From the sequence record PX994957.1: 64,000 nt of DNA; one strand, given 5' to 3'. A program made the position numbers and the translations under genes. Positions 303-59,046 of this stretch are shown here, piece by piece. The notes under the pieces were generated by a model. That model was not told the origin of the DNA and did not search any database. It saw nothing but the letters and a program-made list of their open reading frames with translations. The DNA is from a phage. Every line of letters begins with the position of its first letter. Within the stretch, counting starts at the first letter, position 1.

Positions 303-452
303 TTACTGCATGACTGTGATAACTGTCATGATAACACGTTGAATTCCGAACGCAAGAAGACCTCCTGCTACGGCTGGAACAACACCTAAACCCGCCAGTA
401 AAATGCTACCGGATACTAATGCAGCGCTTGTAATACCTATGAATGGACTCAT
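303..452 (-). CDS. 49-aa hydrophobic membrane peptide
   Basis: ATG overlaps gene 52 stop (ATGA); SD GAGGAAA; MSPFIGITSAALVSGSILLAGLGVVPAVAGG; under 60 aa so absent from ORF track. Confidence 0.5.
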   Translation of the reverse strand: MSPFIGITSAALVSGSILLAGLGVVPAVAGGLLAFGIQRVIMTVITVMQ

Positions 453-1777
453 TTGATTTCCTCTAAATCTTTAGTGTATTCGGTAACTACATTAGTAGTT
501 TTCCAATATTCGTTTTCTTCTTTCTTAGCTTTAGCTTCTTCAGCAAGTTTCTTTGCTTCGTCGGAAGTCATATGAAAAATATTCATTCCAACTAGTTTAT
601 CAACATAAGAAGAATACATATCGATTTTCGAAAGTTCTTCGGTCAGTTCTTTGCGAGTTTTACCCTGCACAACGATTTCACCTGAAATTACTTTCTTAAT
701 GAAATGTGCCTTGGCAAAGGCTAAACGAAAAGCTGACTCAGTTTCTTTGATTTTGTTATCAATTCGTTTTTGGACATAAGTTTTACGAACTTCAACAAAG
801 TCTTTAATTAAATCAACTACGTTATCGTAAACTTGTAGTTTTCCTTTCTCATTAATAACCGTAATATTCTGAGAACGACGCTCAATCAACCCGAAGTCTT
901 TCATAATTTTTGCATGGCGTTCTTCTTCGTTATCGCTCAAAGAATATTCTTTACGGAATTTAACTTTGAATCCAAAACCATGCTCACCACAAGCATCATC
1001 CCATGTAATGAAGCCTTTATCTTCAAGTGGGTCTAAGATTTTACTCACATAAGTTTCACGATCATACTTATACGGAATCTCAGTGATATGCATTTGAGTT
1101 CGTGAAGTAAACTTATATGTTCCACGAATTTCATATTGGCCATCAATCTCAACGACTTCACCACGAAATTCTGGGAATTCTACCTTCGGTTTAGTTACTT
1201 TCTTTCCTTGAAGAGCTTGTAATACAGCTTTCTTAACAGAAGAAACACTATGAGGAAGAATGTAAGTTGCATAACCAGTTGCAATACCGGAAACACCATT
1301 AAGAAGAACAGTAGGAATAATAGGCAAATAGAAAGCAGGCGGAATGTGTTCTTTATCTTGATGTACCGGAGCATATTCAGTATCTTTATATACGTTATAG
1401 AAATTTTTACTTACACGAGCAAAAATATAACGACTTGCTGCTGCTTTTTGGACGGTACGAGAACCAAAGTTTCCTTGACCATCTAACAGAGGAAAATTAT
1501 TATTCCAAGTGTTAGCCATCAAAGCACCTGCGTCTTGCGCAGAGTTTTCACCATGATGATATCCAAGGTCCGCTACACCACCTGCAATAGAAGCGAGTTT
1601 GTGAAACTTATCTTTATTTCCTCGTGCCAAATCAAGAGCTCGAGCAATAACAAATCGTTGAACTGGCTTAAATCCGTCAATCATATTTGGAATGGCACGA
1701 TTTTCAACCGTGTACATAGCATAAGCCAATGCTTCATTATCAATGATACTTTTTAAATCGCGATTATTCAGTTGCAT
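449..1777 (-). CDS. 52: DNA topoisomerase II medium subunit gp52
   Basis: 442 aa, same length as T4 gp52; MQLNNRDLKS start; position downstream of ndd and upstream of motA. Confidence 0.93.
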   Translation of the reverse strand: MQLNNRDLKSIIDNEALAYAMYTVENRAIPNMIDGFKPVQRFVIARALDLARGNKDKFHKLASIAGGVADLGYHHGENSAQDAGALMANTWNNNFPLLDGQGNFGSRTVQKAAASRYIFARVSKNFYNVYKDTEYAPVHQDKEHIPPAFYLPIIPTVLLNGVSGIATGYATYILPHSVSSVKKAVLQALQGKKVTKPKVEFPEFRGEVVEIDGQYEIRGTYKFTSRTQMHITEIPYKYDRETYVSKILDPLEDKGFITWDDACGEHGFGFKVKFRKEYSLSDNEEERHAKIMKDFGLIERRSQNITVINEKGKLQVYDNVVDLIKDFVEVRKTYVQKRIDNKIKETESAFRLAFAKAHFIKKVISGEIVVQGKTRKELTEELSKIDMYSSYVDKLVGMNIFHMTSDEAKKLAEEAKAKKEENEYWKTTNVVTEYTKDLEEIK

Positions 1778-2673: not shown

Positions 2674-2889
2674 TTAATCGTCGCAGTCGACGCTCAATTC
2701 CCAAAACTCTTCTACGGTATAAGTTTCAGTATCATTTTCAATACAGAAACGTTCATTACTGTTATTTGCTAAAGTAGCGTTAACTGTCGGTTTCTCGCTA
2801 GTGCTCTTAAGAGGTGAAATACGAATTAACTGATCACCGTTATCTAAACAGAAAATTTCACCAACTTTTACATCTTTAAAACTTTTCAT
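2674..2889 (-). CDS. hypothetical protein (ndd.x-type)
   Basis: 71 aa; ATG 2889 with SD GAGGTGA. Confidence 0.55.
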   Translation of the reverse strand: MKSFKDVKVGEIFCLDNGDQLIRISPLKSTSEKPTVNATLANNSNERFCIENDTETYTVEEFWELSVDCDD

Positions 2890-3004
2890 AATTCACCTCA
2901 AGGAGTATAAAATCCAAATGCAGTTGTTGACCATCCCATCCAATATGGAAAATTTGCACCAATGTAAAACATAAGAATATAAAACCAACCGCTCAACAAA
3001 TTCA

Positions 3005-3202
3005 TCATTTTACACCATTCCAAATTGTTTCAACTACTGATTTTAAACCATTTTGATAAATATCCATTCCGACTACTGCCATCAAATAGATTCCAACTAC
3101 AACTGAACCTAAGGCGAAAATCAGCATAAAAATAAATAAAGTCGGAAAAATATTATCGAAAAACCATTCAATAAATGTAAAAGCACCGCGTTTACGCTTC
3201 AT
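3005..3202 (-). CDS. 65-aa membrane protein
   Basis: ATG 3202 with SD GAGGAAAATA; hydrophobic core FIFMLIFALGSVVVGIYLMAVVG; track start is TTG read-through. Confidence 0.55.
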   Translation of the reverse strand: MKRKRGAFTFIEWFFDNIFPTLFIFMLIFALGSVVVGIYLMAVVGMDIYQNGLKSVVETIWNGVK

Positions 3203-3209
3203 ATTTTCC

Positions 3210-3323
3210 TCACATAAATCCAAAATAAGCGTTTAACATATCAATCATTAAAACGATTGGGAATATACTCAAAACTATTAGTATTATAACTACATTCCAT
3301 ATAGCTTTAACAATCTTTTTCAT
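3210..3323 (-). CDS. 37-aa hydrophobic peptide
   Basis: ATG 3323 after SD GGAGGAACA directly downstream of early promoter; MKKIVKAIWNVVIILIVLSIFPIVLMIDM. Confidence 0.45.
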   Translation of the reverse strand: MKKIVKAIWNVVIILIVLSIFPIVLMIDMLNAYFGFM

Positions 3324-3351
3324 TTTGTGTTCCTCCGTAGTTGATAGTTGT

Positions 3352-3382
3352 ATAGTACCACAGAGGAACAGTCTTGTAAACA
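3352..3382 (-). promoter_or_regulatory. T-even early promoter
   Basis: GTTTAC (3377-3382), 18-nt spacer, TACTAT (3352-3357); flanked by inverted repeat GTTCCTC/GAGGAAC. Confidence 0.55.
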
Positions 3383-3598
3383 ACTTTTTTAAAAATATTC
3401 GTAATAAATGTGAATACCAACTACTACCGCTGAAACCTGTGCAACCCACCACGCGCAAGCAATAAGTACAGAATTAAAAATTTTCATAATAACCTCATCA
3501 CAAAAGTAAATGTTAAACAAATTAATGGAATACTAATTAACCAAACAAAACACCACCATAATGAACTCATAGTTCAATCTCAACGATTTTCATTTTAC

Positions 3599-3805
3599 TC
3601 AATAATCCGCTAAAAGATCGACGATTGCATCACGAAGACACTTATTCGCAATACGTTTAAGAGCAATTTCAGTTTCTGGAGCATTTTGAATAATCATTGA
3701 ATTCAATTCAGCCTCAGCAAACTGAAGTTCTTTAACTAATTCAGCTTTATATTTTCCTTGCCCTTTCTTAGCTTTTGCTCGTTTTAATTCAGCTGTAGTA
3801 AACAT
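3599..3805 (-). CDS. hypothetical protein (denB-proximal)
   Basis: 68 aa from ATG 3805 with SD GGAGAATAAA; track start is TTG within promoter leader. Confidence 0.55.
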   Translation of the reverse strand: MFTTAELKRAKAKKGQGKYKAELVKELQFAEAELNSMIIQNAPETEIALKRIANKCLRDAIVDLLADY

Positions 3806-3839
3806 TTTATTCTCCAAATCCGTATCAGTTGATAGTTGT

Positions 3840-3869
3840 ATATTACCACAGTCCTTGTGGTATGTAAAC
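3840..3869 (-). promoter_or_regulatory. T-even early promoter
   Basis: GTTTAC (3864-3869), 18-nt spacer, TAATAT (3840-3845); spacer dyad CCACAGTCCTTGTGG. Confidence 0.5.
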
Positions 3870-3884
3870 CGTTTGTGAAAATTT

Positions 3885-4442
3885 TTAAATGGAAAGATAC
3901 CATCCGTTGTAGTTGCTTTTTCTTACAACCTTACGAAGGTCTTCTCTGTCACCGATGAACTTCGGAGTGTACTGGATGACACCTGGATGAATTTCTTTAG
4001 TGTTGAATATAATTATACAGTCAGCGACTTGATGATTTAGAATGGGCCCTAAATTTATTCCAGAACCATATGGATACTCTCCGCTGCATCCCGTTGTTAC
4101 CGAAATCCAACGCGAGTCAGTTTGATGTGTTTTGACTTCTACACGAAGCCCGCAATATTTTGGATGCGCTAAAACATCCCATGCATACGTGTACGGGTCA
4201 TTAACGTCCTCTTGGCCTTTGTTAACATACCCGCTTAGCCAATCTGCTACAAAAAACTCTGCGTACACCGCGATACGGCATCTTTCGATAACTTCTGCTT
4301 TATCCTGGTTCGGGTTTTGTTTTAAAGAGTATCTTGCTGTATCAGCAATTTTGACCTTCATTTCACTAGTCAAATCACTGTTCGATAGGGTAAATGTCGG
4401 AATCTGAAATAGTCTCTGTAAACCCGGATTCGTTTTCTGCAT
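3885..4442 (-). CDS. denB: DenB endonuclease IV
   Basis: 185 aa, equal to T4 DenB length; ATG 4442 with SD AAAGGAAAG; adjacent to rIIB side. Confidence 0.85.
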   Translation of the reverse strand: MQKTNPGLQRLFQIPTFTLSNSDLTSEMKVKIADTARYSLKQNPNQDKAEVIERCRIAVYAEFFVADWLSGYVNKGQEDVNDPYTYAWDVLAHPKYCGLRVEVKTHQTDSRWISVTTGCSGEYPYGSGINLGPILNHQVADCIIIFNTKEIHPGVIQYTPKFIGDREDLRKVVRKSNYNGWYLSI

Positions 4443-5913: not shown

Positions 5914-8091
5914 TTAGGCCGCAAGGGCCTTCATAGTTTTAGCGATTTGGGAAACTTCATCATCACTTAAAGAGTTGCGATATCCGATGAAGTCGGAAAC
6001 AATACGGAATTTCTTGGTAAACTCAGCAACCATTTTATCACTGTTTTTTGAAGCATTATTTGATAATACATCAAAAAGATTAGTTACTGTCCAGATATCA
6101 TGACCGATGGTATCTTTTCCACCATTAAAATATACACCGCGCAATGAACTAACTATATTAGCGAGTCGTGTATATTCTTCAGAAACTTCATCTGTACTGA
6201 AGTACTTCATCATAAAATCTAGCTCAGGATACTTGATAATTTTATCAATATATCGTTGAGCTGAACTTGAATAACCTACATACTTATCATAATCTACATC
6301 ATCAAAAGCATCTACATATAAATCACGCAAAGCTTCAAAAATACATTGGCACTGACCGAGTTCTTTTACCTTTTTCTGTAAAAGCGGACGAATAACATAA
6401 AATTCATTAATGCCAATAAGATTAGCCATACGAATCAAAATATTCATAGATGGATGACAAAGTGATGTAGTACCATCCATAGAGAAAATATCAGAACGAT
6501 GCATATACGCTACATAACCAGTAATTTCATCTGCTTCTGACGTAAGTGTAAATAGTTCCTCTTTTTCCCAGCGCCCATCTTTAATTTCAAATTTAAATGC
6601 TGTAGCAGCTTTAGGACGAGGAGCTTTACTTTTAACTACCTTTGGAATATAACTTTTAACCAAAGCTTCAATTTCTGACAAATAGTGAATGTTAACTTCA
6701 TCACTTTCAAACATCGCCATAATATCAGGGAGTAAATCAATCTGCGATTCTACTTCCGGATTAATAAACAGAAGACGCTCATTGTGATGAATATTCAAAG
6801 TGTTATTAAATTCACTATCATCTAACGCGTGTGCTAATCCACGGACAATATTAACACGATTTTTAATATTATCAATAACGATATTAATTTTTGTTGTATT
6901 AATACCAAACAGACGATAACTTGATGCAACGGCTGAAGTTTCATGACTTTGCTTAATGCGTTTCAGTCGAGGGTCAAGATTTACTTCATACACCACGCCT
7001 GCATTACATAACTTACTGTCAGGTTCAAACATGCTCTGCATCTTCTTATATGACAGATTTTTAGTCGTGAATTTGACTGAATTACTAATCATATAATCTC
7101 GAGCAGAATAGCCCATTTTCATTAACTCGCGATACGTATGGCGAGGAGATGTAGATTCTTTAAATCGTTTTACATCTTCATTAAATGCTTTCTCACTAAG
7201 CTCTTTAACTCGTTCAATAATATTTTTACGAGTACGATCATCCAATGAAAGAGCTTCACGTGATGGAGCAATATCAAGTGAACCCATTGGAAACTTAATG
7301 TAATTCACTTCATTGCGAATGCTTAGCCAGTTACGGTCTCTAATAACACCATCGATAGGATAAACAATACCGCCATAGATAGCATATAATCCACCACGAT
7401 CAGGCCAGTATCTTTCTGGATTTACACCGTAATAATCATCAAAATCCGGAAAATAATCAATTTCACGGTCAAGACCATTAATAATAGCCAAATCTTTGAA
7501 CGGTCGCATGATATAAGAAACTTCATAAGCAAAGTTTCTAAAGTCTTTTTCTTCAACTGGAACTACGATTTCAATACCAGTTTTATCATCTGGACCCATT
7601 TCTTTTACGAATGTAGGTTTAATCTGTGGGCCATCACCATCCATGTAAGCTACATAACCACGAATTTCACCTTTATGATACGAAGTAATACTAAACGTAT
7701 CAGTATAACTAAACGGAGATTTAGAACCTAAACCAAATCCGCCAATGAAATCGTTAGATTCAGCCTTAGATGAACTGAAGTATGAATTATACAAACCAGG
7801 AGAATTATCATCACCCTGAATATCAAAATCACTCATACCCGGACCAAAATCTCGGCAAACAAATCGTGGATCTAAACGTCCAGGAACTTGAATGATAAAT
7901 TTTTCAGGATTTCCATTGAGAGCATGGGCATCAATCATGTTGGTAATCAATTCACGAACAACTGCGCGAATCTTATTTGTATACAAATCAGATGATAAGA
8001 TTTTAAATACTTTAGGAGATGCTGTGATGCTAAATGCTTTTGATTTAGAACCATTACCAAGAATTGTTTCTTTTTCAGTGGTGATAATCAT
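5914..8091 (-). CDS. rIIA: RIIA (GHKL-ATPase-like membrane-associated protein)
   Basis: 725 aa, equal to T4 rIIA; ATG 8091 with SD GAGGAAATTA. Confidence 0.93.
5916..5930 (-). other. rIIA-rIIB intercistronic hairpin
   Basis: AGGCC gcaag GGCCT palindrome between rIIA stop and rIIB SD. Confidence 0.45.
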
Positions 8092-8101
8092 AATTTCCTC
8101 A

Positions 8102-8305
8102 TTAATTCATATTACGCTTAATAACTTCAGCAACTTCTAGTAGTTCGTCTTTAGTTGCGGTGTCGGATTGAATTTTATCTCTAATATCTTTAAAGCGGTT
8201 TTTAAATTCTTCGGCTTCTCCCATATCGAAAAAGCGTTGAATGATTCTATATTCTCGATGAACTGCTTTATCAAAAAGTTCTAAATTTACTTTATATGAT
8301 TTCAT
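8102..8305 (-). CDS. rIIA.1: RIIA.1-like small protein
   Basis: 67 aa; ATG 8305 with SD GAGGATA; between gene 39 and rIIA. Confidence 0.65.
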
Positions 8306-8330
8306 TCCAATATCCTCATTTGCCCAATTA

Positions 8331-8360
8331 ATTATACCACATCCTTGTGGTAAAGTAAAC
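8331..8360 (-). promoter_or_regulatory. T-even early promoter for rIIA.1-rIIA-rIIB
   Basis: GTTTAC (8355-8360), 18-nt spacer, TGgTATAAT extended -10 (8331-8339); spacer dyad CCACATCCTTGTGG. Confidence 0.6.
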
Positions 8361-10177
8361 TACTGGCTCATCCATTCTTTACGAAGGTCAGCATTATCTC
8401 CCATGAGCATTTCAAAAAGCTCTTTCCAGTTCTCAGGAAGTTTAACAACATCATATACTGGATTTTGAATCATCTCACGATATTCAGATTTTTCCAAAGA
8501 GCCAAGTCCCTTAATATAACGGATGCTATGTTTAGGTAGAGCATCTTTAGCACTCTCATATTCAGCGACTGTATAAAACCATTCTTGTTTTTTACCGACC
8601 TGAGCGATGATTACAGGAGTTTTGACAAAGCGAATTCGTCCTTGCTCAAACAATTCTGGCCAATTACTAAAAAATCCGAGCAGAGAAGGATAAATGCTTC
8701 CTAGACCATCATGGTCAGCATCGGTCATAATAGCAATATTATGATAATTCAAGTTTTCAGCTTTTTCACCAAGAACTAATCCAGTGATTGCGCAAATATC
8801 AAACAGTTCTTTGTTTTTAAGCATATCAGCATATGACATACCCCAACTGTTGAGAACTTTACCACGCAATGGATAACCACCGTGAAGTTCTTTATCACGA
8901 ACATCAATAAGATATCCGATAGCAGAATCACCCTCAGTCAAGAAAAGAGTAGTGTCAGCATCTTTACCACAAAGATTCGCTTTGATATGTTTATGAACCT
9001 TAGCTTTAGAAGCCTTTTTAGCTGCTTTAGTTTCTGCCGCTTTTTCTGCTGCCAATTTACGGGCCAAGGCAGCTTCAATAATTGGCATCAAAATAGCTTC
9101 ATTATTTAGAATAGCGCGTGAAATCTTTTTAGCATCAAGTTGAATATGACTACGAATTTCGCCAAATGGAGAAGTCAAACGCTCTTTAGTCTGAGAATCA
9201 AATCGCATGTTTTTCATATCACGAACAAACATAACGATAGTCAAACATTCTTTAACACGTGCTTTAGTCACATCAATTTTGAACTTACGTTTGATTTGTG
9301 GAATAAGGTCTTCACAAATATCATCCATAACACAGTCAATGTGATGGCCACCATTCTTAGTGTGAATGTTATTCACATAAGTTAATTGACGAAATCCATC
9401 CGGTGAACGACCAACAGCAATAGAACAATTTTCTTGTTCTTGAACAATAGCATGCTCATCATATTGGCGTGCATATTTCTTAAAATTACCCTGAACCTTT
9501 TTACCATTAAAGGTAAATTGAATATCAGGATAAACGACAGCAAGTGTCTGGAGACGATCCAGTGTAATGTCAAGATAAACCTGAGACAGCTCATTAGTTT
9601 CAAATGACATAAAATCAGGAATGAAAGTAACACGAGTTCCTTTCCATTTTCCAGGAATAGTTTCCCAGGATTTATTTTCCATACCATTTGAACAACGAAC
9701 TACAATATTATTTTGACCATCGCCAGTTTCACCGACAAACATCACAGAAAAAATGTTTGTCAAACTAGAACCAACACCATTCATACCACCGGTGACGCGT
9801 TCTTTATCATCACCGAAGTTACCACCTGCTTTTGGAATAGTCCAGGCAGCAACAGGACCAGGAATTTCTTCACCGGTAGGTGTTTTAACCATCGCTTGTG
9901 GAATACCGCGACCGTTATCTTCAACTGTTACCTGATTATTTTTAATGGTAACATTAATTTTATTCGCGAATTTAAACTTAGTACGAATACCTTCATCTAC
10001 TGAGTTATCGATAATTTCATCAATAAGCTTAACAAGACCAGGTACATACTGAACACTTTCCCATTTACCAAACAGAAAGCGCTCATGCATTTCATTAGCA
10101 GAAGAGCCAATATACATGCCGCTACGCTTTTTGATATGTTCAATATCGCTCAGAATTTTAATTTCATTCTTAATCAT
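8360..10177 (-). CDS. 39: DNA topoisomerase II large subunit gp39, unsplit (no gene 60)
   Basis: 605 aa from ATG 10177 (SD GAGGATAAGTG); MIKNEIKILSDIEHIKKRSGMYIG; GHKL ATPase and TOPRIM regions contiguous in one ORF. Confidence 0.92.
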   Translation of the reverse strand: MIKNEIKILSDIEHIKKRSGMYIGSSANEMHERFLFGKWESVQYVPGLVKLIDEIIDNSVDEGIRTKFKFANKINVTIKNNQVTVEDNGRGIPQAMVKTPTGEEIPGPVAAWTIPKAGGNFGDDKERVTGGMNGVGSSLTNIFSVMFVGETGDGQNNIVVRCSNGMENKSWETIPGKWKGTRVTFIPDFMSFETNELSQVYLDITLDRLQTLAVVYPDIQFTFNGKKVQGNFKKYARQYDEHAIVQEQENCSIAVGRSPDGFRQLTYVNNIHTKNGGHHIDCVMDDICEDLIPQIKRKFKIDVTKARVKECLTIVMFVRDMKNMRFDSQTKERLTSPFGEIRSHIQLDAKKISRAILNNEAILMPIIEAALARKLAAEKAAETKAAKKASKAKVHKHIKANLCGKDADTTLFLTEGDSAIGYLIDVRDKELHGGYPLRGKVLNSWGMSYADMLKNKELFDICAITGLVLGEKAENLNYHNIAIMTDADHDGLGSIYPSLLGFFSNWPELFEQGRIRFVKTPVIIAQVGKKQEWFYTVAEYESAKDALPKHSIRYIKGLGSLEKSEYREMIQNPVYDVVKLPENWKELFEMLMGDNADLRKEWMSQ

Positions 10178-10204
10178 CACTTATCCTCGTTTGGTTTCGG
10201 GAAT

Positions 10205-10232
10205 ATTATACTCCGGCAATCATAAAGCTAAA
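10205..10232 (-). promoter_or_regulatory. candidate MotA-dependent middle promoter for gene 39
   Basis: TATAAT at 10205-10210 with MotA-box-like TAGCTTTA 12 nt upstream (one mismatch to TGCTTtA). Confidence 0.4.
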
Positions 10233-10246
10233 GGCCCGAAGGCCTT
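10231..10246 (-). terminator. UUCG-loop hairpin after lipoprotein gene
   Basis: AAGGCC CGAA GGCCTT immediately after stop at 10247. Confidence 0.45.
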
Positions 10247-10507
10247 TTATTTAAAACGAATAGTTGAATCCTTAAAGAACAACCCAGAACATACTGTTCC
10301 TTCTACTTTCTGCCCAGTAGGTCCAATAGCACGAAATCCAGTATGTTGGAAATCATTTTCAGAGCAACCGAACCAATTATATCCAGTGATTTCAATATTC
10401 GTAAAACCACTCGATGATAAAATTTTAGTTGCATTATCAGCATCAGTACATCCTACTAAAGATACTGCTAATACTAATGCTGCAATAGAACGATTAATAT
10501 ATTTCAT
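10247..10507 (-). CDS. predicted lipoprotein (signal peptide + lipobox LVGC)
   Basis: 86 aa from ATG 10507; MKYINRSIAALVLAVSLVGCTD. Confidence 0.6.
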   Translation of the reverse strand: MKYINRSIAALVLAVSLVGCTDADNATKILSSSGFTNIEITGYNWFGCSENDFQHTGFRAIGPTGQKVEGTVCSGLFFKDSTIRFK

Positions 10508-10512
10508 AGTTT

Positions 10513-10887
10513 TCACTTAAATTTAATGGCTTGAAGGAGACTAATAATTCTCAAACGGCTTCTTTCATCTTTAACTGTAAAAGAAAGAGGGTCGCCAGAT
10601 TTCATAGTGATAGTGCATTCAAAATCAAAATCTTCAGGAACTTCTTCGAAGAAGTCAAATTCTTCATCATAAATTAGAACTTCACTCCGCAGACTGTGAA
10701 GAATTTTTCCAGCATTTCTGCTAGTTGCTGTACTAATCATTGTAACATTATGACCTTTCATATCTTCAACGATAAATTCGCTTGTAGATATTACGGCATT
10801 AATAGAACCATTCCTATTACTAGCAGAAAGTAGATATTTCTTTTCTTCACCTTCGCGAACACGATATTTCTTACCGATTTTAAACAT
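10513..10887 (-). CDS. hypothetical protein (39.x-type)
   Basis: 124 aa from ATG 10887 with SD AAGGGTGA; track start is GTG. Confidence 0.55.
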   Translation of the reverse strand: MFKIGKKYRVREGEEKKYLLSASNRNGSINAVISTSEFIVEDMKGHNVTMISTATSRNAGKILHSLRSEVLIYDEEFDFFEEVPEDFDFECTITMKSGDPLSFTVKDERSRLRIISLLQAIKFK

Positions 10888-10889
10888 AA

Positions 10890-11066
10890 TCACCCTTTAA
10901 GTAAATCGTAAAAACCGCCATTCACATGCTTAGGAGCAGAAGGCCGACGAGTAGACAAACGATGACATTTAGGGCAAACATCATTTTCTCGTTCAGAAAT
11001 CTTTTTAATTTTTTCATATTCATGCCCGCAATCTTCGGATTGGCATTTATAATCATACATTGGCAT
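10890..11066 (-). CDS. 58-aa zinc-ribbon protein (FmdB-like CxxC..CxxC)
   Basis: MPMYDYKCQSEDCGHEYE...CPKCHRL; ATG 11066 with SD AAGGAATAAT; absent from ORF track. Confidence 0.55.
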   Translation of the reverse strand: MPMYDYKCQSEDCGHEYEKIKKISERENDVCPKCHRLSTRRPSAPKHVNGGFYDLLKG

Positions 11067-12088: not shown

Positions 12089-12586
12089 TTATGCACAGCG
12101 AGCTTTGCTATAGTGTTTAATCCAGCTTTCAGGAATGACTTTGTATGTTCCTAAAAATACCGCGTTGTACAGCTTAACACCGTCTTCTACCCACTGATCG
12201 GTAATGTATGCGCACATAGCACGAGTACGGTGTTTTTGAACAACCCCTTCCTCATCTTCAGTAAATTCGAATTCATAAGGAGCAACGAACTTAATAGCCT
12301 GACCGAGTTTCCACTTAAAGTATACACCTACATGCGAAGTATCAATCGTTTCAATTCCTTTAGCAGGAACAGCTTTCAAAAACGCAGATTCAAGAAATTT
12401 CGCACGAACATAGCCAAACTGAGGTTTAGACTTTCCATCTTTAGGAATGATACGCACTTTTACTTCAGAATCTTCATCTTTAACGCCGTGTTTAAGCTGA
12501 ATGCTTACAATTTCGACCAATTTTCCTGCTGCTTTAGAACGGGATTTATCAGATACACGAGCAATTTCACCAATATTAATAATCAT
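12089..12586 (-). CDS. motB: MotB-like protein
   Basis: 165 aa (T4 MotB about 162 aa); position between cef and dexA; shares C-terminal DQW(V/I)EDGV motif with next ORF. Confidence 0.6.
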   Translation of the reverse strand: MIINIGEIARVSDKSRSKAAGKLVEIVSIQLKHGVKDEDSEVKVRIIPKDGKSKPQFGYVRAKFLESAFLKAVPAKGIETIDTSHVGVYFKWKLGQAIKFVAPYEFEFTEDEEGVVQKHRTRAMCAYITDQWVEDGVKLYNAVFLGTYKVIPESWIKHYSKARCA

Positions 12587-12662: not shown

Positions 12663-13202
12663 TTAATTCAAAATAGCTACCACTGCACTACGAGGTACTA
12701 CGCTAAAATCACCTGCATGAACAACGTTCAGAAGTTCAACACCATCTTCAATCCATTGGTCTGTTACCCAACCACAGACCGAAATAAATGGAGTCTTGAT
12801 AGCTACCGCACGAGTTAAAAGGTCAGTAGGATCGCATTCTTGAAAGAGGATGAACTCTGCTTCAAAGACTATAGTTTTAATTACTTCATCATTATCTAAG
12901 CGATGTGCTCGAATCACGTAAGCTTTATTTTTATCATACCAGTTACTTTTTGAAAAGCTTTTAACCACAAACTCACCTTCACCAAAAACACTAGTCAATG
13001 CTTTATAACCCAAATTTAGTTCAGTTGTTTTAATTTCAGTTTCAACTAGTTTGTAGGTTTTGCCGATTTCAATAGCGGTAGTCATAGTAGGTTCCTTAAT
13101 TTCCAGTGGTTTAACAGGGCATACATAAGTGCTTACAACATCAAAATCAATCAGTTTAGCTACCGGATTTGGTATGTATTCAGGATTATAATTAAATTTC
13201 AT
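12663..13202 (-). CDS. MotB paralog
   Basis: 179 aa; C-terminus VTDQWIEDGVELLNVVHAGDFSVVP parallels motB ITDQWVEDGVKLYNAVFLGTYKVIP. Confidence 0.55.
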   Translation of the reverse strand: MKFNYNPEYIPNPVAKLIDFDVVSTYVCPVKPLEIKEPTMTTAIEIGKTYKLVETEIKTTELNLGYKALTSVFGEGEFVVKSFSKSNWYDKNKAYVIRAHRLDNDEVIKTIVFEAEFILFQECDPTDLLTRAVAIKTPFISVCGWVTDQWIEDGVELLNVVHAGDFSVVPRSAVVAILN

Positions 13203-21099: not shown

Positions 21100-21336
21100 T
21101 TAACCACCTATTTCTGTAGGCGTAAACATTGCAGCATTCTTAGTTTTCCAAGTTGCTGCATCGGAAACTACATCAGAATAAGCTGCTTTTTCTGACGGAA
21201 AGATTTGATAATGAGAATCTGCAATACGGTGTTCATTTGAATATACATCAAATGCTACAGAAACTTCCATACCTTTAACTTCTTTGCCTTCACCTGCTGG
21301 ATGAGTAAAGGTCTTGATGTTAACGAAACCACCCAT
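21100..21336 (-). CDS. soc: Soc small outer capsid protein
   Basis: 78 aa; VNIKTF, SVAF, HYQIFPSEKAAYS resemble T4 Soc; late promoter motif upstream. Confidence 0.75.
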   Translation of the reverse strand: MGGFVNIKTFTHPAGEGKEVKGMEVSVAFDVYSNEHRIADSHYQIFPSEKAAYSDVVSDAATWKTKNAAMFTPTEIGG

Positions 21337-21367
21337 AATAAACTCCTTTATTGTTTAATTACAGGTG

Positions 21368-21375
21368 TATTTATA
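21368..21375 (-). promoter_or_regulatory. T4-type late promoter (TATAAATA) for soc
   Basis: exact TATAAATA on minus strand about 30 nt upstream of soc SD AAAGGAG. Confidence 0.55.
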
Positions 21376-21377
21376 AC

Positions 21378-21518
21378 TTACAATTTAGCGGCTTTCCAGA
21401 GTTGTTCAATAATCTCTTGGTCTATTTCTTTAGTTATTTCATTACGTAATAAAGCAGTAAGGGCTTTCGCCCTTTTCTTATTCAACTTTTTGAGTTGACG
21501 TTTATTTAAACAAGCCAT
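21378..21518 (-). CDS. possible 46-aa basic protein; may be non-coding
   Basis: ATG overlaps gp56 stop (TAATG) but no SD; contains GAAA-loop hairpin (21460-21475) and MotA-box-like TGCTTTA. Confidence 0.3.
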   Translation of the reverse strand: MACLNKRQLKKLNKKRAKALTALLRNEITKEIDQEIIEQLWKAAKL

Positions 21519-22036
21519 TAATAACCTCGGTCTTGACGTGCGAAATTTTCAGCATTTTTCAGGTAATAAAGTTTAAAGATTTCTTCTGCTGTAAGACCAA
21601 GACCTTGGAACATGTTCAGAACGAAATGGAGAATATCAATCATTTCAAACTTAATTTCCAGTTGGTCTTGTGGAGACAAATCAGTAATCAGAGTTTCACG
21701 GCGTTCACCATGCTGCGACTTCCAAGGCTTCCATACAGCAGATGCATCTTTTTCACCATTGCTCATACCACCAAGAGAAGTCAGAAGTTCACGGAATTCA
21801 TCATCAATATAATCTTTCTGATTACGCAACCAATCAACAACTTCACCGGCAGTAGCCAAGTCATCAGGATGACGATTATATTCAGGTTTATCTTTAGCTA
21901 AACGAATTTGCAGAGATTTCTGCATGTCAAGCATTACCTGCAGCGGGTCTTTTTCATCACCGAGAATATCCCAATATTCATTTTGAGCTTTATCAGCGCC
22001 TTCGATCAGTTGACTACATTCGTTGAAATGTGGCAT
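21518..22036 (-). CDS. 56: gp56 dCTPase/dUTPase (MazG-like)
   Basis: 172 aa (T4 gp56 171 aa); ATG 22036 with SD AAAGGAAAAAT. Confidence 0.88.
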   Translation of the reverse strand: MPHFNECSQLIEGADKAQNEYWDILGDEKDPLQVMLDMQKSLQIRLAKDKPEYNRHPDDLATAGEVVDWLRNQKDYIDDEFRELLTSLGGMSNGEKDASAVWKPWKSQHGERRETLITDLSPQDQLEIKFEMIDILHFVLNMFQGLGLTAEEIFKLYYLKNAENFARQDRGY

Positions 22037-22072
22037 GTTATTTTTCCTTTCAATTCATGGGTTAGTAGATTA

Positions 22073-22097
22073 ATTATACAATAAATATATAAAGCAA
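22073..22097 (-). promoter_or_regulatory. MotA-dependent middle promoter for gene 56
   Basis: MotA box TTGCTTTA (22090-22097), 11-nt spacer, TATAAT (22073-22078). Confidence 0.5.
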
Positions 22098-22109
22098 TAA
22101 GGAGGACAT

Positions 22110-22310
22110 ATGGTACAAAAATTAATGGCACTTGTTAATGCCATAAAAGGTAATAAAAAACGTATAGCTTTTACTATTTCTGCTATGGTAGGAATTTTAC
22201 TCTGGAACTTTATTCTATCACCTGTTGCAATTGCGCATGGTATTAATATTCCAGTAGTTACTCTTGATACATTTGTAGATTTAGCATTTGCTTTAGTTGG
22301 GTTAATTTAA
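22110..22310 (+). CDS. 66-aa hydrophobic protein on the opposite strand between 56 and 61
   Basis: strong SD AAGGAGG (22099-22105) then ATG 22110; MVQKLMALVNAIKGNKKRIAFTISAMVGILLWNFILSPVAIAHG; stop interleaved with gp61 stop. Confidence 0.45.
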   Translation: MVQKLMALVNAIKGNKKRIAFTISAMVGILLWNFILSPVAIAHGINIPVVTLDTFVDLAFALVGLI

Positions 22311-27131: not shown

Positions 27132-28305
27132 TAAATTCTTCCATATCACTTAACTGCTCGAGGTCAGTTTCTAAATCAGCTGCTGATTTACTTTTACTTT
27201 CTGGAGATTTAAATTTTTCAACCTTTGAGTTAATCAATTCATCAACTTCAGCTTCAACAATTTCATTACTATCAATAGCACCTAACTGATAAGCACGTTT
27301 AATAGCATCTCGGAATGGTTGATGCTTAAATAAAGGACCCCAGAATGTAGTGCAGTTGGTATCTTTTGCACGCCAAGATTTTTCTTCGCGAATCATCTCG
27401 CCGGTTTCTTCGTCAAGAAATTCACGAGCATACCAACCATTCTTAGGTTTTACTACAAATCCTAATTCTAGAGCCATATCTAACAATCCAGAATAAGGAT
27501 CGATACCACCGTCAAATTTAACATCAATAAAGAATTTACTTTTTTCTTTAACGGTACGAGATTTTTCTACATTTAGAACAAATTGATACCCCTGAAGATC
27601 AGAACCATCTTTAATCTGACGCTTACCGATAATGAATACAGTATCAGCCGAATACATTACGCCTGTACCACCTGTCATCACGGTTTTACTAAACATTTCA
27701 ATTGTTTCAATTGTATGGTTAACCGCAACACATGGAATATTTTTAATGCTAAAATAAGGAGTAACAATACGAAATAATGACTTCAGTGATTTAGCACGAG
27801 TCATATCTGCCACAGATTTTTCATTCAAGGCGTCTTCCGTTTCTTTCTTAGAAGCCATATTACCGATTGAGTCGATGAATACAATAACCTTTTCACCACG
27901 CTCAATAGCTTCAAGTTGATTCACCATATCAATTTTCAGCTGTTCAACTGACTGAATTGGCGTATGAATTACTCGTTCCGGGTCAACTCCCATGGATCGC
28001 AAATAAGCTGGAGTAATACCAAATTCGCTATCATAGAATAGACAAACCGCGTCAGGATATTTGTTCAAATATGCCGCAACCATAGTCAAAGACATATTTG
28101 ATTTAAAGTGTTTAGAAGGCCCTGCGAAAATAGTTAAACCAGACTGCATACCGCCATCAATCGCACCAGAAATAGCAATATTCAGCATTGGAATTTTTGT
28201 ACGGATTACATCCTTTTCATTAAAGAATTTAGATGTAGTCAGTTCAGCAGTCATTTTAGAAGTGGAAGCTTTAATCAAACGGGATTTTAAATCTGCAATA
28301 GACAT
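27124..28305 (-). CDS. uvsX: UvsX recombinase (RecA-like)
   Basis: 393 aa (T4 UvsX about 391 aa); Walker A GPSKHFKS; RecA-fold region. Confidence 0.92.
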   Translation of the reverse strand: MSIADLKSRLIKASTSKMTAELTTSKFFNEKDVIRTKIPMLNIAISGAIDGGMQSGLTIFAGPSKHFKSNMSLTMVAAYLNKYPDAVCLFYDSEFGITPAYLRSMGVDPERVIHTPIQSVEQLKIDMVNQLEAIERGEKVIVFIDSIGNMASKKETEDALNEKSVADMTRAKSLKSLFRIVTPYFSIKNIPCVAVNHTIETIEMFSKTVMTGGTGVMYSADTVFIIGKRQIKDGSDLQGYQFVLNVEKSRTVKEKSKFFIDVKFDGGIDPYSGLLDMALELGFVVKPKNGWYAREFLDEETGEMIREEKSWRAKDTNCTTFWGPLFKHQPFRDAIKRAYQLGAIDSNEIVEAEVDELINSKVEKFKSPESKSKSAADLETDLEQLSDMEEFNE

Positions 28306-28384
28306 TCATTTTTTTTCCATAGGCATCATTATATTTTCCTCACTGGTTAAAGATAGAGTAATTATAACACAATAAATTTAGGCA

Positions 28385-29227
28385 TTAATCAACTGCTATT
28401 GGATGAATAGCATTAAACTTATGAAATGCTTCTGATTTTTCTTTACGTGAAACGCACATGCGAAGAACCTTTAATGGCTCGTCTTCTTCACCCAACGATT
28501 TTCGTTTTTCAATATTCGACGTTTTCCAACGAGCTTGCTCTGGAAACTCTCTATTGATTTGCTCAAGCGCTCTATTATGTTTAGAATTACTACGAATTGA
28601 ACTGCACCCGCCAGGAGCTTGTGCTTTTCCAGATACAACCAGATATTTGAACAAGGCCAAATGCGGATAACCTTGATTAATTAAATTGAGAAATGCATAC
28701 ATATCTTCGCACAAATCAATTTTTCCATACCCAATTTGTTCTGTCGTAAGTTTTCCAAGGTCATACCATGTATTCGTGAATCCATATGAATTTTCACGAT
28801 AATTACCCCAAGATGAAGTAATTTTAAAAATAGGTAGACGAGCATGACCATGATAATACCCGCAATCCATGGCATCTTCGACGTATTGAATCAATTCATA
28901 GAACTGTTCATGAGTCAATTGATTAACTTTATCCACACAACGACGGTCATCTCTTTTTCGCATTGAACTCATACGAATAGTAGTATCATCGTCAATCATC
29001 CAGATTCGTTGACCTGCATACATATCAGTAATTGCTTTACGAGTACCGGCAATTCCGTTTACATCATCAGGAATAGTTATAATTTTAGCTCTAGACCCAT
29101 AGGCATCATAATAAGCTTTTTCTTCATGTTCACGCACTACAATATGGGGTTCATAATCAGTCGGAAACATATCAAGGGCAGAAACTGCCCCGACACGCTG
29201 ATAACTTGGAATTACGAATTGAATCAT
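28385..29227 (-). CDS. GT-A-like glycosyltransferase at the beta-gt position; candidate beta-alpha glucosyltransferase
   Basis: 280 aa from ATG 29227 (ATGA overlap with gene 42 stop); DxD-like MIDDDTTI; too short for T4 beta-gt (351 aa, GT-B). Confidence 0.6.
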   Translation of the reverse strand: MIQFVIPSYQRVGAVSALDMFPTDYEPHIVVREHEEKAYYDAYGSRAKIITIPDDVNGIAGTRKAITDMYAGQRIWMIDDDTTIRMSSMRKRDDRRCVDKVNQLTHEQFYELIQYVEDAMDCGYYHGHARLPIFKITSSWGNYRENSYGFTNTWYDLGKLTTEQIGYGKIDLCEDMYAFLNLINQGYPHLALFKYLVVSGKAQAPGGCSSIRSNSKHNRALEQINREFPEQARWKTSNIEKRKSLGEEDEPLKVLRMCVSRKEKSEAFHKFNAIHPIAVD

Positions 29228-29964
29228 TTCCACTCACCTTTATAGTCTTTTTTCACAATATGAGTTTCGCCAGTATTCCACCAATGATCAACCAAGTAAA
29301 AATGACGAGAATATACATGAAGACTTCCGACATTCCATATAATAGAACCTGCTTTATACTGACGAGTTGAATCGCCGGCATTCAAATCAGATACTAATTT
29401 ATCTAATACGTATTTTTGCCATGCATAATCATTACGGAATCCGAAGACTACGTCATTTGAGCGCATGCTTACTACTGCATTGACTTTCTTATCACGAATC
29501 AGGTACTGTACTGTATTAGTACACATGAAATCTGACATGCCATCTTTATTGTAGTCAAATTGCATGGATGGACGAGTATAAATCATGATACCACGTCGAG
29601 AATCAGGATTTTGACCAAGTTCAGCTAAACACATATCATACTGAGCATAGTTATCTTCTGACCAAATAGCCCAACCATAATTCGAGTTAATTTCGCCTTT
29701 AGAAGATGCTACCTGCTGCCAAATCTTTGGTGTTTCACCTGGAATATCTTTAACAAACAAGCTCTTAGATTTATACCATTCAAGTTCGCGCTGAATGTAT
29801 TCATCATTAAGAGCGCCAAAAATAAACGGTTCATCTGCTACAAATGATGCGCCAATAATTTCAATAGTTTTAACACCAGTTTTATCAACTACGAAATCTT
29901 TTTCCTTTAATGCAGTTCCCAAATAAAAACGGATTTCTTCAACTGTCATAGAGTCATTAATCAT
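29224..29964 (-). CDS. 42: gp42 dCMP hydroxymethylase
   Basis: 246 aa, equal to T4 gp42; thymidylate-synthase-like fold. Confidence 0.92.
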   Translation of the reverse strand: MINDSMTVEEIRFYLGTALKEKDFVVDKTGVKTIEIIGASFVADEPFIFGALNDEYIQRELEWYKSKSLFVKDIPGETPKIWQQVASSKGEINSNYGWAIWSEDNYAQYDMCLAELGQNPDSRRGIMIYTRPSMQFDYNKDGMSDFMCTNTVQYLIRDKKVNAVVSMRSNDVVFGFRNDYAWQKYVLDKLVSDLNAGDSTRQYKAGSIIWNVGSLHVYSRHFYLVDHWWNTGETHIVKKDYKGEWK

Positions 29965-40840: not shown

Positions 40841-42041
40841 ATTTTGTAATAATGTCAAACTGTTCTTTAAAGCAGAAGCTTGAATCTTGATGCTGATACA
40901 AAAATTCATAAGCTTTTTCGCGTTCGCGGTCATAAAGAGTTCGGTCAGATGACAGTTCTTTAATACGTTCAAATGTTGATTCCATGTCATTTTCATCAAA
41001 CCAAATGATACCGCTATCATGCGAGGTCAAAGGAGTATTATCAACACGGAATTTTAAATTTTCGCCAGTAGATTTCCAAAATACCGGAATTGTTCCACAT
41101 GCACCAAGCTCGAGATGAGTATATTCTAAAGAACGTTGTAGATATTTTTTGTCCAACTTACTCAGCTGATAACCAAATCCGGATTTACTCATACGTTCAA
41201 GCATTTCGCTATTTACATAACGGTCAAGAATTTGCGTTGGCAAATTAGGAGCAATTTTAATTTGGTCTACTTGATGAAGACGATAATACTCGTATGGAAT
41301 TCCTTTTTCTTTAATAGGAATGAACGCTGGAGAACGTTCCAGACCTTCCATAATAGTACTTAGTCCTGCAGGTTTAAGATGTTTTTCATGAAAATCAAAC
41401 ATCTGATAAAAACCTTTCCATGTAGTCGTACGACCAATCCAACGGTTAACATTCATGTTAATTTCAGAAACATCTTTCCAGTAGGTTGATCGAACCTTCG
41501 CAATATCCATAGGAGGCTGAAAGTTATATACTGTCGGTGCTTCTTCAATATCATCAAACAGAGAAACAGTTTCTGGATACCATTCTTTCATCAGAACTTT
41601 ATTAAAATCACCATTATCAGAATGGCTAAAAATAACATCAGCTCGACGAACAGTTTCTTCTAATCCCAAATTTCGGCGCAAAGAAAGAGAAGAATGGTCA
41701 TGTTGATAAACTACAACACGAACCGAAGGTTTAATGTTATCAATAATTTTTTTATAGTTATTAATAGTGTCTTCTTCAACTGAAGTAGCAGGAACTGAAT
41801 TGATAATTAGAATATCACAATCATTTACCAGCTTAAGTGTTTTATCATATTCTTTTGCCAATAAAACCGGAATTGAAAATGATTTATAATCATGCGCGCA
41901 ATTACGAGTAAATGATTTATCTTTAGCATAAACCAAAGTCACTTCATGACCATTTTTAATAAACCAATCACGTTGCTCGAGTGAGAATTTTGTTACACCA
42001 CAACCTTCAAGACCTCGAGCCATAAAAATACATACTTTCAT
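40839..42041 (-). CDS. a-gt: alpha-glucosyltransferase
   Basis: 400 aa, equal to T4 a-gt; N-terminus ICIFMARGLEGCGVTKFSLEQRDWFIKNGHEV as recalled. Confidence 0.92.
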   Translation of the reverse strand: MKVCIFMARGLEGCGVTKFSLEQRDWFIKNGHEVTLVYAKDKSFTRNCAHDYKSFSIPVLLAKEYDKTLKLVNDCDILIINSVPATSVEEDTINNYKKIIDNIKPSVRVVVYQHDHSSLSLRRNLGLEETVRRADVIFSHSDNGDFNKVLMKEWYPETVSLFDDIEEAPTVYNFQPPMDIAKVRSTYWKDVSEINMNVNRWIGRTTTWKGFYQMFDFHEKHLKPAGLSTIMEGLERSPAFIPIKEKGIPYEYYRLHQVDQIKIAPNLPTQILDRYVNSEMLERMSKSGFGYQLSKLDKKYLQRSLEYTHLELGACGTIPVFWKSTGENLKFRVDNTPLTSHDSGIIWFDENDMESTFERIKELSSDRTLYDREREKAYEFLYQHQDSSFCFKEQFDIITK

Positions 42042-42065
42042 TTAATATCCTCTTTGTTTTGGTTT

Positions 42066-44811: not shown

Positions 44812-44818
44812 ATTTTCC

Positions 44819-45112
44819 TCAGCTGTAACGATAGCACTCGTTTGATTTACGCTTAGCAACTAGTTGAGAAGTATTATAATCAAAATCATCGTCAATGTAA
44901 ACTGATTTTTTCAACTTTCTTACTTCACCACGCAGTTGACGATTCAATTCATTCTTAACCTCTGAATCAACACCTCGCATACGTCGCCATTTATCTGAAC
45001 GAAAAATGTTTTCAACCATATCTTTATGACTTACCCCATCAGGAGCTTTACGCTTTCCGAAATAGTCATAATCACGAACTTTCAAGTCTTTACGACGATA
45101 CGTTTTACCCAT
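44819..45112 (-). CDS. hypothetical basic protein
   Basis: 97 aa from ATG 45112; track start is read-through across the upstream small gene. Confidence 0.5.
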   Translation of the reverse strand: MGKTYRRKDLKVRDYDYFGKRKAPDGVSHKDMVENIFRSDKWRRMRGVDSEVKNELNRQLRGEVRKLKKSVYIDDDFDYNTSQLVAKRKSNECYRYS

Positions 45113-45281
45113 GGAGTTTAATTTCCTTAGCAACTGAACTAAATACAGCACGATCACAAATCATACGTTTGTTCCATTTAATCACAGTATAATGAACATC
45201 TAAATCATCGACTGCTGTAACAATAACGATATGTCCGTTAGCACGATAGTACTGGTCAATTTTAATCTCTTTATCAACCAT
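45105..45281 (-). CDS. 58-aa hypothetical protein
   Basis: ATG 45281 with SD GAGGAATTGAT just downstream of early promoter; absent from ORF track. Confidence 0.5.
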   Translation of the reverse strand: MVDKEIKIDQYYRANGHIVIVTAVDDLDVHYTVIKWNKRMICDRAVFSSVAKEIKLHG

Positions 45282-45311
45282 ATCAATTCCTCAAAGGTAA
45301 TTCATATGTTA

Positions 45312-45341
45312 ATAATACCACGGTTTGAACTTCTTGTAAAC
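45312..45341 (-). promoter_or_regulatory. T-even early promoter
   Basis: GTTTAC (45336-45341), 18-nt spacer, TATTAT (45312-45317). Confidence 0.5.
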
Positions 45342-45422
45342 AACTTTGTGAAAATTATTTTAGGGAATGATAAGAAGTGAACGATAGCTTAGAATGGTAA
45401 TATACAGAATGTGAGAAAGAAA

Positions 45423-45435
45423 GGCCCAGAGGGCC
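45423..45435 (-). terminator. hairpin terminator after nrdH
   Basis: GGCCC aga GGGCC followed on minus strand by UUUCUUUCUC. Confidence 0.5.
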
Positions 45436-45439
45436 CGTC

Positions 45440-45763
45440 TTAGTCTTCTATGATATCTCTATCATATCCAAGTGAAATGAGAGTTTCTTTGAAGTGTTTA
45501 ATGTTCTTTTGTCTAGAATCATTAATGAAAATGACTGGATAACGAATGTTAAGAGATGTGAATCCGGCGCGTTTGGCAAGAGATACAATCAGTGGACGAT
45601 CATACTCAATCTTACCATTATTTGTAAGAACTTTATAGAAAGTAAAAGGAGCACTGAGCTCCTTTAGAAGTTTTGTAACTGATTGACATCCAGGACAACG
45701 ACCTACTTCATCTGGAATTCCATAGACTTCAATCTTATTCTTTAAGTTCGAGTTTTGTTCCAC
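45440..45763 (-). CDS. nrdH: NrdH-like glutaredoxin
   Basis: CPGC redox motif after a KIEVYG beta-strand; no in-frame ATG, probable GTG start at 45763 behind SD AAGGAA; start uncertain. Confidence 0.6.
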   Translation of the reverse strand: MEQNSNLKNKIEVYGIPDEVGRCPGCQSVTKLLKELSAPFTFYKVLTNNGKIEYDRPLIVSLAKRAGFTSLNIRYPVIFINDSRQKNIKHFKETLISLGYDRDIIED

Positions 45764-46046
45764 GAGAAATAATTCCTTGGTAAGCCCAATAAGGAGGATT
45801 AACAGAATCCTCACCAGAGTTTTCTTCAGGAAAATAAACCTGGATAACGAAGCCGGATTCATCAAAGGTGAAATAAGTAGTAGGCAGTTCACCTAACAAA
45901 TCGGCACGAGCGTTGATTTCTTCGAGGTCTTGTTCACGTCCAGCCCAGAAGCTTGGGTTCAGACTACATTCATAGAAATAATAGTCATTACCGAACATAT
46001 CAAAACCATTCCAACTCTCTACTACATACCGCTCAAAACTAATCAT
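45735..46046 (-). CDS. hypothetical protein (55.x-type)
   Basis: 103 aa; ATG 46046 with SD AAGGCTTAATT. Confidence 0.5.
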   Translation of the reverse strand: MISFERYVVESWNGFDMFGNDYYFYECSLNPSFWAGREQDLEEINARADLLGELPTTYFTFDESGFVIQVYFPEENSGEDSVNPPYWAYQGIISRGTKLELKE

Positions 46047-46379: not shown

Positions 46380-46850
46380 TTAATCATGTTTCCACACCCC
46401 ATCGGTATTTGACCAAAGTCGCTGATTATCTGATCCTCGCCACAGCTTTTTGGTCGGAAGATTTTTCTCATACTTCCCATCAATAATAACATCAACATAT
46501 TTAAGCATTTCTAGTTGTTTAATATCTTCAAACTTATATCCTGTCCACAACCAAATGCTTTTACTGGGATAAAGATTTTTTACTGTTTGAACAATGCAAT
46601 GAATCACGTCTCTGTTATCAGGATAAAGAGGGTCTCCTCCAGTTATAGTTAATCCTTCTATATAATCATTATTCAAACATTCAATTAATTGTTCCAGTGT
46701 TTCACCAGTGAATGGAACGCCATTTCTAGCATTCCATGTTGATTTATTATAACACCCTTCGCATTTATGCAAACAACCTGTAACGAAAAGAACGACCCTG
46801 CAACCAGGGCCATTAACAAAATCGCAAGGATAAAATCTATCATAATTCAT
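46380..46850 (-). CDS. nrdG: NrdG anaerobic ribonucleotide reductase activase (radical SAM)
   Basis: 156 aa, equal to T4 NrdG; Cys cluster CLHKCEGC; ATG overlaps nrdD stop. Confidence 0.88.
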   Translation of the reverse strand: MNYDRFYPCDFVNGPGCRVVLFVTGCLHKCEGCYNKSTWNARNGVPFTGETLEQLIECLNNDYIEGLTITGGDPLYPDNRDVIHCIVQTVKNLYPSKSIWLWTGYKFEDIKQLEMLKYVDVIIDGKYEKNLPTKKLWRGSDNQRLWSNTDGVWKHD

Positions 46851-59044: not shown

Positions 59045-59046
59045 AA

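Follow-up and report, generated by a model that had tools for sequence, protein, structure and literature searches.

Gene 39 occupies positions 8360–10177 on the minus strand of the 64,000-nt stretch of phage DNA analyzed here (to be referred to as the window). It consists of 605 codons followed by a TAG stop codon (8360–8362), with zero internal stops, and a spacer of 54 nt separates it from rIIA.1. The description in the initial annotation, a single uninterrupted 605-codon open reading frame (ORF) located directly upstream of rIIA.1, is therefore confirmed. The corresponding entry in the ORF list (8360–10180, minus strand, 606 aa) begins with GTG. The second codon of this ORF is the ATG at 10177, the start used by T4, T2 and T6, and gene 39 is therefore assigned to 8360–10177. 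From this ATG the product begins with MIKNEIKIL, the N-terminus common to gp39 of T4, T2 and T6. As the frequency of stop triplets is 0.073 on this strand, the probability of a stop-free run of 605 codons by chance is roughly 1e-20. ORFs on the plus strand inside 8360–10177 have at most 101 aa, and all of them overlap the strongly conserved gene 39.

The features of the locus are listed in Table 1. The order of gene 39 and rIIA.1 is the same in T4, T2 and T6. A promoter-like site is located in the spacer between them, and the count of such sites in the region is not above that in shuffled sequence. On the other side of the gene, a GGCC-TTCG-GGCC hairpin (10244–10233) is found at the end of 39.1, and GAGGA (10188–10184) lies 6 nt before the ATG of gene 39. 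Judging from the sequence, transcription of gene 39 may start from a site with TATAAT (10210–10205), positioned after this GC hairpin.

Table 1. Features of the gene 39 locus and associated genes (window coordinates)
Feature	Position	Strand	Basis
Gene 52, GyrA-like medium subunit, partner of gp39	449..1777	-	Pfam DNA_topoisoIV, E 8e-77; PHROG 551
rIIA (725 aa), anchor of the T-even gene order	5914..8091	-	ORF list; collinear with T4 1–2793 at 97.0%
rIIA.1 (67 aa), immediately downstream of gene 39	8102..8305	-	98.5% identical to T4 rIIA.1
Promoter-like site TTTACT, 17 nt, TG, TATAAT, in the 54-nt spacer before rIIA.1	8331..8359	-	Consensus scan, 10/12 matches
Empty site of the MobA element: 64 nt that read as ordinary coding sequence, from the third base of codon 473 to codon 494	8696..8759	-	BLASTN blocks and junction alignment
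Adjacent codons Gly491 GGT (8707–8705) and Leu492 CTA (8704–8702)	8702..8707	-	Base-by-base alignment
Region upstream of gene 39	10184..10244	-	Direct reading of the sequence
Gene 39.1 homolog, immediately upstream of gene 39	10247..10516	-	T4 gp39.1 matches 10250–10435 at 98%; PHROG 902

The ORF of the 39.1 homolog can begin 24 codons upstream of the start annotated in T4, where the product has 65 aa. The extended N-terminus, MKTMKYINRSIAALVLAVSLVGC, combines a signal peptide with a lipobox-like LVGC. In T2, T6 and T4T, 39.1 is annotated as 261 nt (86 aa), and the T4 reference annotation of this gene may be truncated. Between 39.1 and 39.2 there is an ORF of 126 aa (10513–10893, minus strand) that is absent from T4, corresponding to an insert of 376 nt relative to T4. 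It is RB32ORF005c in the annotation of T6 and RB51 and matches PHROG 622 (unknown function). Its match to a goF-like PHROG is weak, and on sequence it may be a distant paralog of the neighboring goF. Another ORF, of 179 aa (12663–13202, minus strand; RB32ORF010c in the T6 annotation), stands in for T4 motB.1. Its C-terminus is MotB-like (Pfam motB, E 3e-8; PHROG 2333), and the ORF is a tandem partial paralog beside motB (12089–12586).

Domain structure of gp39

The gene 39 product contains the Pfam domains HATPase_c (residues 47–149, E 1.9e-9), DNA_gyraseB (residues 250–384, E 1.5e-13) and TOPRIM_C (residues 519–604), and it matches PHROG 543, 'DNA topoisomerase II large subunit', from end to end (E 1.6e-295). 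The top match among solved structures is gp39 of T6 topoisomerase II (8ylu_C), with residues 1–605 aligned to 1–605 in a single stretch. The match to the artificially fused T4 gp39-gp60 chain (8yo3_C, 682 aa) is broken into two stretches, which would fit roughly 70 additional residues in the middle of the T4 protein. These domain, family and structure matches support the assignment of the ORF as the topoisomerase II large subunit, originally made from the letters of the sequence.

The GHKL ATPase motifs (N-box and G-boxes) are intact, with DNSVDE at position 57, DNGRGIP at 87 and GGMNGVG at 130, and the QTK loop of the transducer is located at 329. The TOPRIM catalytic Glu motif (EGDSA, 415) and the DxDxD cluster (DADHDG, 486) are found in one polypeptide. 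The GHKL ATPase, transducer and TOPRIM modules are encoded as a single chain of 605 residues, read by ordinary triplet decoding with no recoding. For annotators, gene 39 in this phage needs no joined CDS or recoding feature. Over codons 1–473 there are 48 synonymous and 8 non-synonymous codon differences from T4, a sign of purifying selection on the gene.

By analogy with the solved T6 enzyme, we infer that gp39 pairs with gp52 to form an A2B2 heterotetrameric, ATP-dependent relaxing enzyme. Relaxation has been assayed for T6 gp39, and the T2 and T6 enzymes have two subunits, T4 having the sole three-subunit one (PMC11461880). As the window protein is nearly identical to T6 gp39 (one amino acid difference), it would be expected to support ATP-dependent DNA relaxation as well.

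The empty MobA-element site

In the T4 record (NC_000866), gene 39 codes for 516 aa and is accompanied by a mobA remnant, 60.1, and a gene 60 in which the 50-nt bypass is annotated. This bears out the starting premise that the T4 protein is split into genes 39 and 60, with the bypass in the latter. The alignment with T4 gp39 plus gp60 and with T2 and T6 gp39, proposed beforehand as the check on the unsplit gene, reveals no insertion and no internal stop. Residues 1–473 of the window protein are 98.3% identical to residues 1–473 of T4 gp39, and residues 472–605 are 95.5% identical to residues 27–160 of T4 gp60, both without gaps. T2 (AP018813) and T6 (MH550421) each have one gene 39 of 1818 nt, at the same position as in the window. 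Their products of 605 aa also align without gaps, with two differences for T2 (F70L and T173D) and one for T6 (Q526H).

The T4 reference gp39 has LIR at codons 326–328, just before the QTK loop, and an Asp at position 355. The window, T2 and T6 have FDS and Ala at these positions, respectively. The LIR and D355 residues, beside the catalytic loop, may reflect a frameshift that was compensated, or else an error dating from early sequencing of the T4 reference.

At the DNA level, window positions 10508–8760 are 95.7% identical to T4 5660–3911, and positions 8695–8002 are 99.3% identical to T4 2793–2100 (694 nt). Between these two blocks, the 64 nt of the empty site have as their T4 counterpart a segment of 1117 nt (T4 2794–3910), and the junctions are clean. 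The T4 segment comprises a gp39 tail of 43 aa, the mobA remnant, 60.1, a gp60 head of 30 aa, a diverged homologous region, and the 50-nt bypass. The identity between the window and T4 extends through base 2 of codon 473 (GC|T), beyond which T4 enters the 43-aa tail. Codons 476–491 of the window are the equivalents of codons 31–46 of T4 gene 60, with differences at 13 of the 48 nt (76% over 46 nt by BLAST). The 50-nt coding gap of T4 sits between the equivalents of Gly46 (GGA) and Leu47 of gene 60. The junction alignment shows no UAG and no second GGA landing codon after Gly491 of the window, and the codons for Gly491 and Leu492 are contiguous. Five differences between the window and T4, all of them synonymous, are located within 9 nt past the bypass position, and only 2 are found in the 336 nt beyond.

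The components of the T4 cassette were also searched for in the entire 64 kb. The 50-nt bypass has no significant match by BLAST (E ≥ 0.1) or by an ungapped Hamming scan, and the top ungapped match (29/50) lies elsewhere in the window. Only chance matches were obtained for the 1058-nt T4 insert (BLAST, E ≥ 0.1) and for the C-terminal extension peptide of T4 gp39 and the N-terminal extension peptide of gp60 (tblastn, E ≥ 0.23). Intact T4T MobA (272 aa), the T4 mobA fragment and gp60.1 have no match below E = 0.7 in the window. In addition, no structured RNA, group I intron or tRNA was detected in the whole window with Rfam at gathering thresholds and ARAGORN. The statement of the initial annotation that gene 60, the bypass element and mobA are missing thus holds across 64 kb, with every cassette query non-significant.

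By analogy with published T2 experiments, gene 39 of the window probably keeps the MobA target, and a co-infecting MobA-positive phage would nick and convert the gene. The 64-nt segment has one difference from T2, a synonymous one at Thr485 (ACC in the window against ACT; position 8723). Two more differences are found just 5′ of the segment, where the window has GGA TTA and T2 has GGT CTA. Base 8723 is within a few bases of the MobA nick position, as estimated from the description by Manning & Atkins (about 20 nt upstream of the bypass position). We consider it highly improbable that ACC at Thr485, alone or with GGA TTA, lowers cleavage by MobA; if it did, gene 39 of this phage would be an allele naturally resistant to homing, with no need for a bypass element. 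The far more diverged homologous region of T4 is still nicked once the bypass is removed (bioRxiv 10.1101/2022.08.31.505936).

Relation of the phage to T4, T2 and T6

The window is collinear with the T4 map from about -5.9 kb to +60 kb, and 21 collinear blocks, with identities of 86–98%, are found against T4 positions 1–60,000. The best-matching records in the collection are those of Escherichia and Shigella Tequatrovirus phages (96–99%). The maximum over 25 kb is approximately 97.6%, and the phages most closely related are O157-associated members of Tequatrovirus, among them CAM-21 and BECP11. The DNA identity to T4 is about 95–97%, and seven T4 homing-endonuclease genes are missing, which supports the view, put forward from the unsplit gene, that this phage is not T4 itself. 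The absence of the cassette excludes T4. Its presence would not have proved T4, because about 40 records of phages other than T4 have the cassette too.

The homing-endonuclease genes of T4 in this map interval (mobA, segF, segA, mobB, mobC, I-TevII and mobD) have no tblastn match in the window (E ≤ 1e-3). In the synteny map, the sites that are empty relative to T4 are at about 21107–22098, 28294–29241, 42030–42056, 46830–46850, 48127–48128 and 58595–59549. The T4 segments with homing-endonuclease genes are missing or replaced, and the inserts specific to the window cannot code for substitutes, being too short or free of HNH/GIY-YIG matches. At the nrdD gene, the 1035-nt group I intron of T4 with I-TevII (T4 44815–45849) is precisely absent, with the flanking blocks only 2 nt apart (window 48126–48129). 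The genome appears to be free of homing endonucleases over the 64 kb. Having no T4 homing-endonuclease gene in this interval, such an endonuclease-poor genome could serve as the recipient in homing experiments.

Two ORFs replace T4 mobD at 58583–59568 (minus strand). One encodes a predicted membrane protein of 153 aa (PHROG 944). The other encodes a y05I-like protein of 173 aa (Pfam T4_y05I_N and T4_y05I_C), a paralog of the adjacent MobD.1 homolog (59575–60129).

Other T4 genes with no match within the window are dam (by tblastn, anywhere in the 64 kb), the β-glucosyltransferase gene, 49.2 and 49.3. At the place of T4 dam, between genes 56 and 61, gene 56 of the window (21518–22036) directly adjoins the spacer that precedes 61 (22037–22309). 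Where T4 has segA and the β-glucosyltransferase gene, the window encodes a β-glucosyl-HMC-α-glucosyltransferase of 282 aa (28385–29233, minus strand; PHROG 842, E 2e-89; Pfam TAGT), a gene of the T2/T6 type. The α-gt gene is present as well (40842–42041, 91% identical to T4). The two glucosyltransferase genes together imply a gentiobiosyl HMC DNA modification of the T2/T6 type, rather than that of T4.

The unsplit gene 39 is already known as the standard arrangement of T2, T6 and the majority of their relatives, and it falls in the catalogued 'parental' class. It types the phage as a T2/T6-like Tequatrovirus and not T4, and has little significance alone.

Origin of the unsplit gene and comparison with known systems

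A megablast search with window positions 8000–10600 finds 717 records, 522 of which have at least 80% of the query in one place, in the unsplit layout. Only 43 records contain the T4 insert, namely those of T4 isolates, RB55, RB59, HY01, HY03, vB_EcoM_112, and a small number of Salmonella and Shigella phages. At the protein level, 2019 of the 2210 matching phage records hold at least 80% of gp39 in a single place by tblastn. Among the 60 matches listed, which are spread over the whole ranking, the sole full-length match in several pieces is the split gene of vB_EcoM_112 (three pieces), and the match to Bacillus phage SP-15, with a coverage of 62%, is the only other one to be broken up (two pieces). 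Contiguous relatives of gp39 reach down to about 30% identity by tblastn, in Ackermannviridae and in Campylobacter, Vibrio and Aeromonas phages. Moreover, human Topo II α and β and bacterial ParE are aligned across the split point in one stretch. Because distant phage and cellular homologs are contiguous and the cassette is present in only 43 records, these sequence comparisons support the proposal in the initial annotation that the unsplit gene is ancestral, and the split in T4 is the derived state. The same conclusion has been published (Bonocora 2011; Manning & Atkins 2022, bioRxiv 10.1101/2022.08.31.505936; T6 gp39 structures 2024).

In T4 and a minority of its relatives, the MobA homing-endonuclease cassette swaps 64 nt of TOPRIM-coding sequence for about 1.1 kb. 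This replacement cuts gene 39 short, makes gene 60, and brings in the 50-nt translational bypass. The locus in the window is thus the 'parental' or recipient allele. In published experiments, gene 39 of T2 acquires the cassette through MobA, and self-cleavage of the donor is prevented by the bypass (Bonocora 2011, as described in bioRxiv 10.1101/2022.08.31.505936 and PMC11461880). The locus is almost certainly an ordinary gene 39, undisrupted as is normal for a Tequatrovirus of the T2/T6 type, in which the MobA cassette was never received or was not retained, and none of the observations contradicts this. It adds one more 'parental' allele, the reference against which the MobA/bypass cassette of T4 is defined.

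The unsplit gene could also be a secondary restoration, if the cassette with MobA and gene 60 was present in an ancestor and was then removed exactly, for instance through an exchange with a co-infecting phage whose gene 39 is unsplit. T-even phages have mosaic genomes with free recombination, and 'hit and run' clades have been described by Manning & Atkins (bioRxiv 10.1101/2022.08.31.505936). Those clades, however, keep the C-terminal and N-terminal extension peptides (bioRxiv 10.1101/2022.08.31.505936), and the window has no trace of either. The higher identity to T4 downstream of the site (99.3% over 694 nt) as compared to that upstream (95.7%) could mark an exchange nearby, but the difference falls inside the local variation along the window (86–98% between blocks). 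In addition, the 64-nt segment has the T2/T6 sequence except for one synonymous base relative to T2 and three relative to T6. We regard such a restoration as very unlikely, although, because a perfect recombinational replacement leaves no scar, it is neither distinguished nor favored by these observations.

A gene fusion would reverse the direction of the change, with the split genes 39 and 60 as the ancestral state and the form in T2, T6 and the window fused later. In its introduction, the 2024 structure paper allows for 'gene-fusion or gene-separation' alike (PMC11461880). The contiguous homologs in 2019 of the 2210 phage records, with identities down to about 30%, argue against fusion, as do human Topo II α/β and ParE, which span the junction in one stretch. 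Moreover, the T4 insert has a homing-endonuclease gene and about 70 residues that are absent from all other homologs. The outgroup distribution effectively refutes the fusion, and its probability is negligible. A comparably minute probability is assigned to an error in the assembly or consensus that hides an insert or a coding gap. We count nothing in favor of such an artefact, and the same 1818-nt gene is present in hundreds of independently sequenced phages, some with a 100% identical product.

T2 and T6 gp39 have the same length as gp39 of the window and the same place between 39.1 and rIIA.1, and structures are available for the T6 protein (PDB 8ylu and others). The differences in DNA sequence between these genes and that of the window are scattered and mostly synonymous. 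T4 gp39 plus gp60 are orthologous to gp39 of the window, and the flanking rIIA, rIIA.1 and 39.1 are common to both phages.

The MobA-free 'parental' topoisomerase II large subunit (Topo2L) genes of clade 1, for example that of RB14, show no relevant difference from the window gene. The clade-1 MobA element has its 5′ end at nt 1399–1419 and its 3′ end 9 nt beyond the bypass, with a deletion of 64 nt of the parental gene and an identity of 67–81% in the substituted homologous region (bioRxiv 10.1101/2022.08.31.505936). The boundaries in the window, codon 473 (nt 1419) and 9 nt past Gly491, agree with these positions. The number of replaced nucleotides is also 64, and the 76% identity (13 differences in 48 nt) is inside the published range. 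The same 64 nt were deleted on insertion of the MobA element in phage HY01, and this mobile element, which has been transferred to T2, removes 55–75 nt of the parental gene (bioRxiv 10.1101/2022.08.31.505936).

Compared to cellular GyrB and ParE and to the N-terminal half of eukaryotic Topo II, the identity of gp39 is low, and gp52, the GyrA-like partner, is a short protein of 442 aa. The phage type IIA enzyme relaxes DNA and does not supercoil it (PMC11461880). On the other hand, the architecture of GHKL, transducer and TOPRIM is alike in all of them, and they are aligned over nearly their full length.
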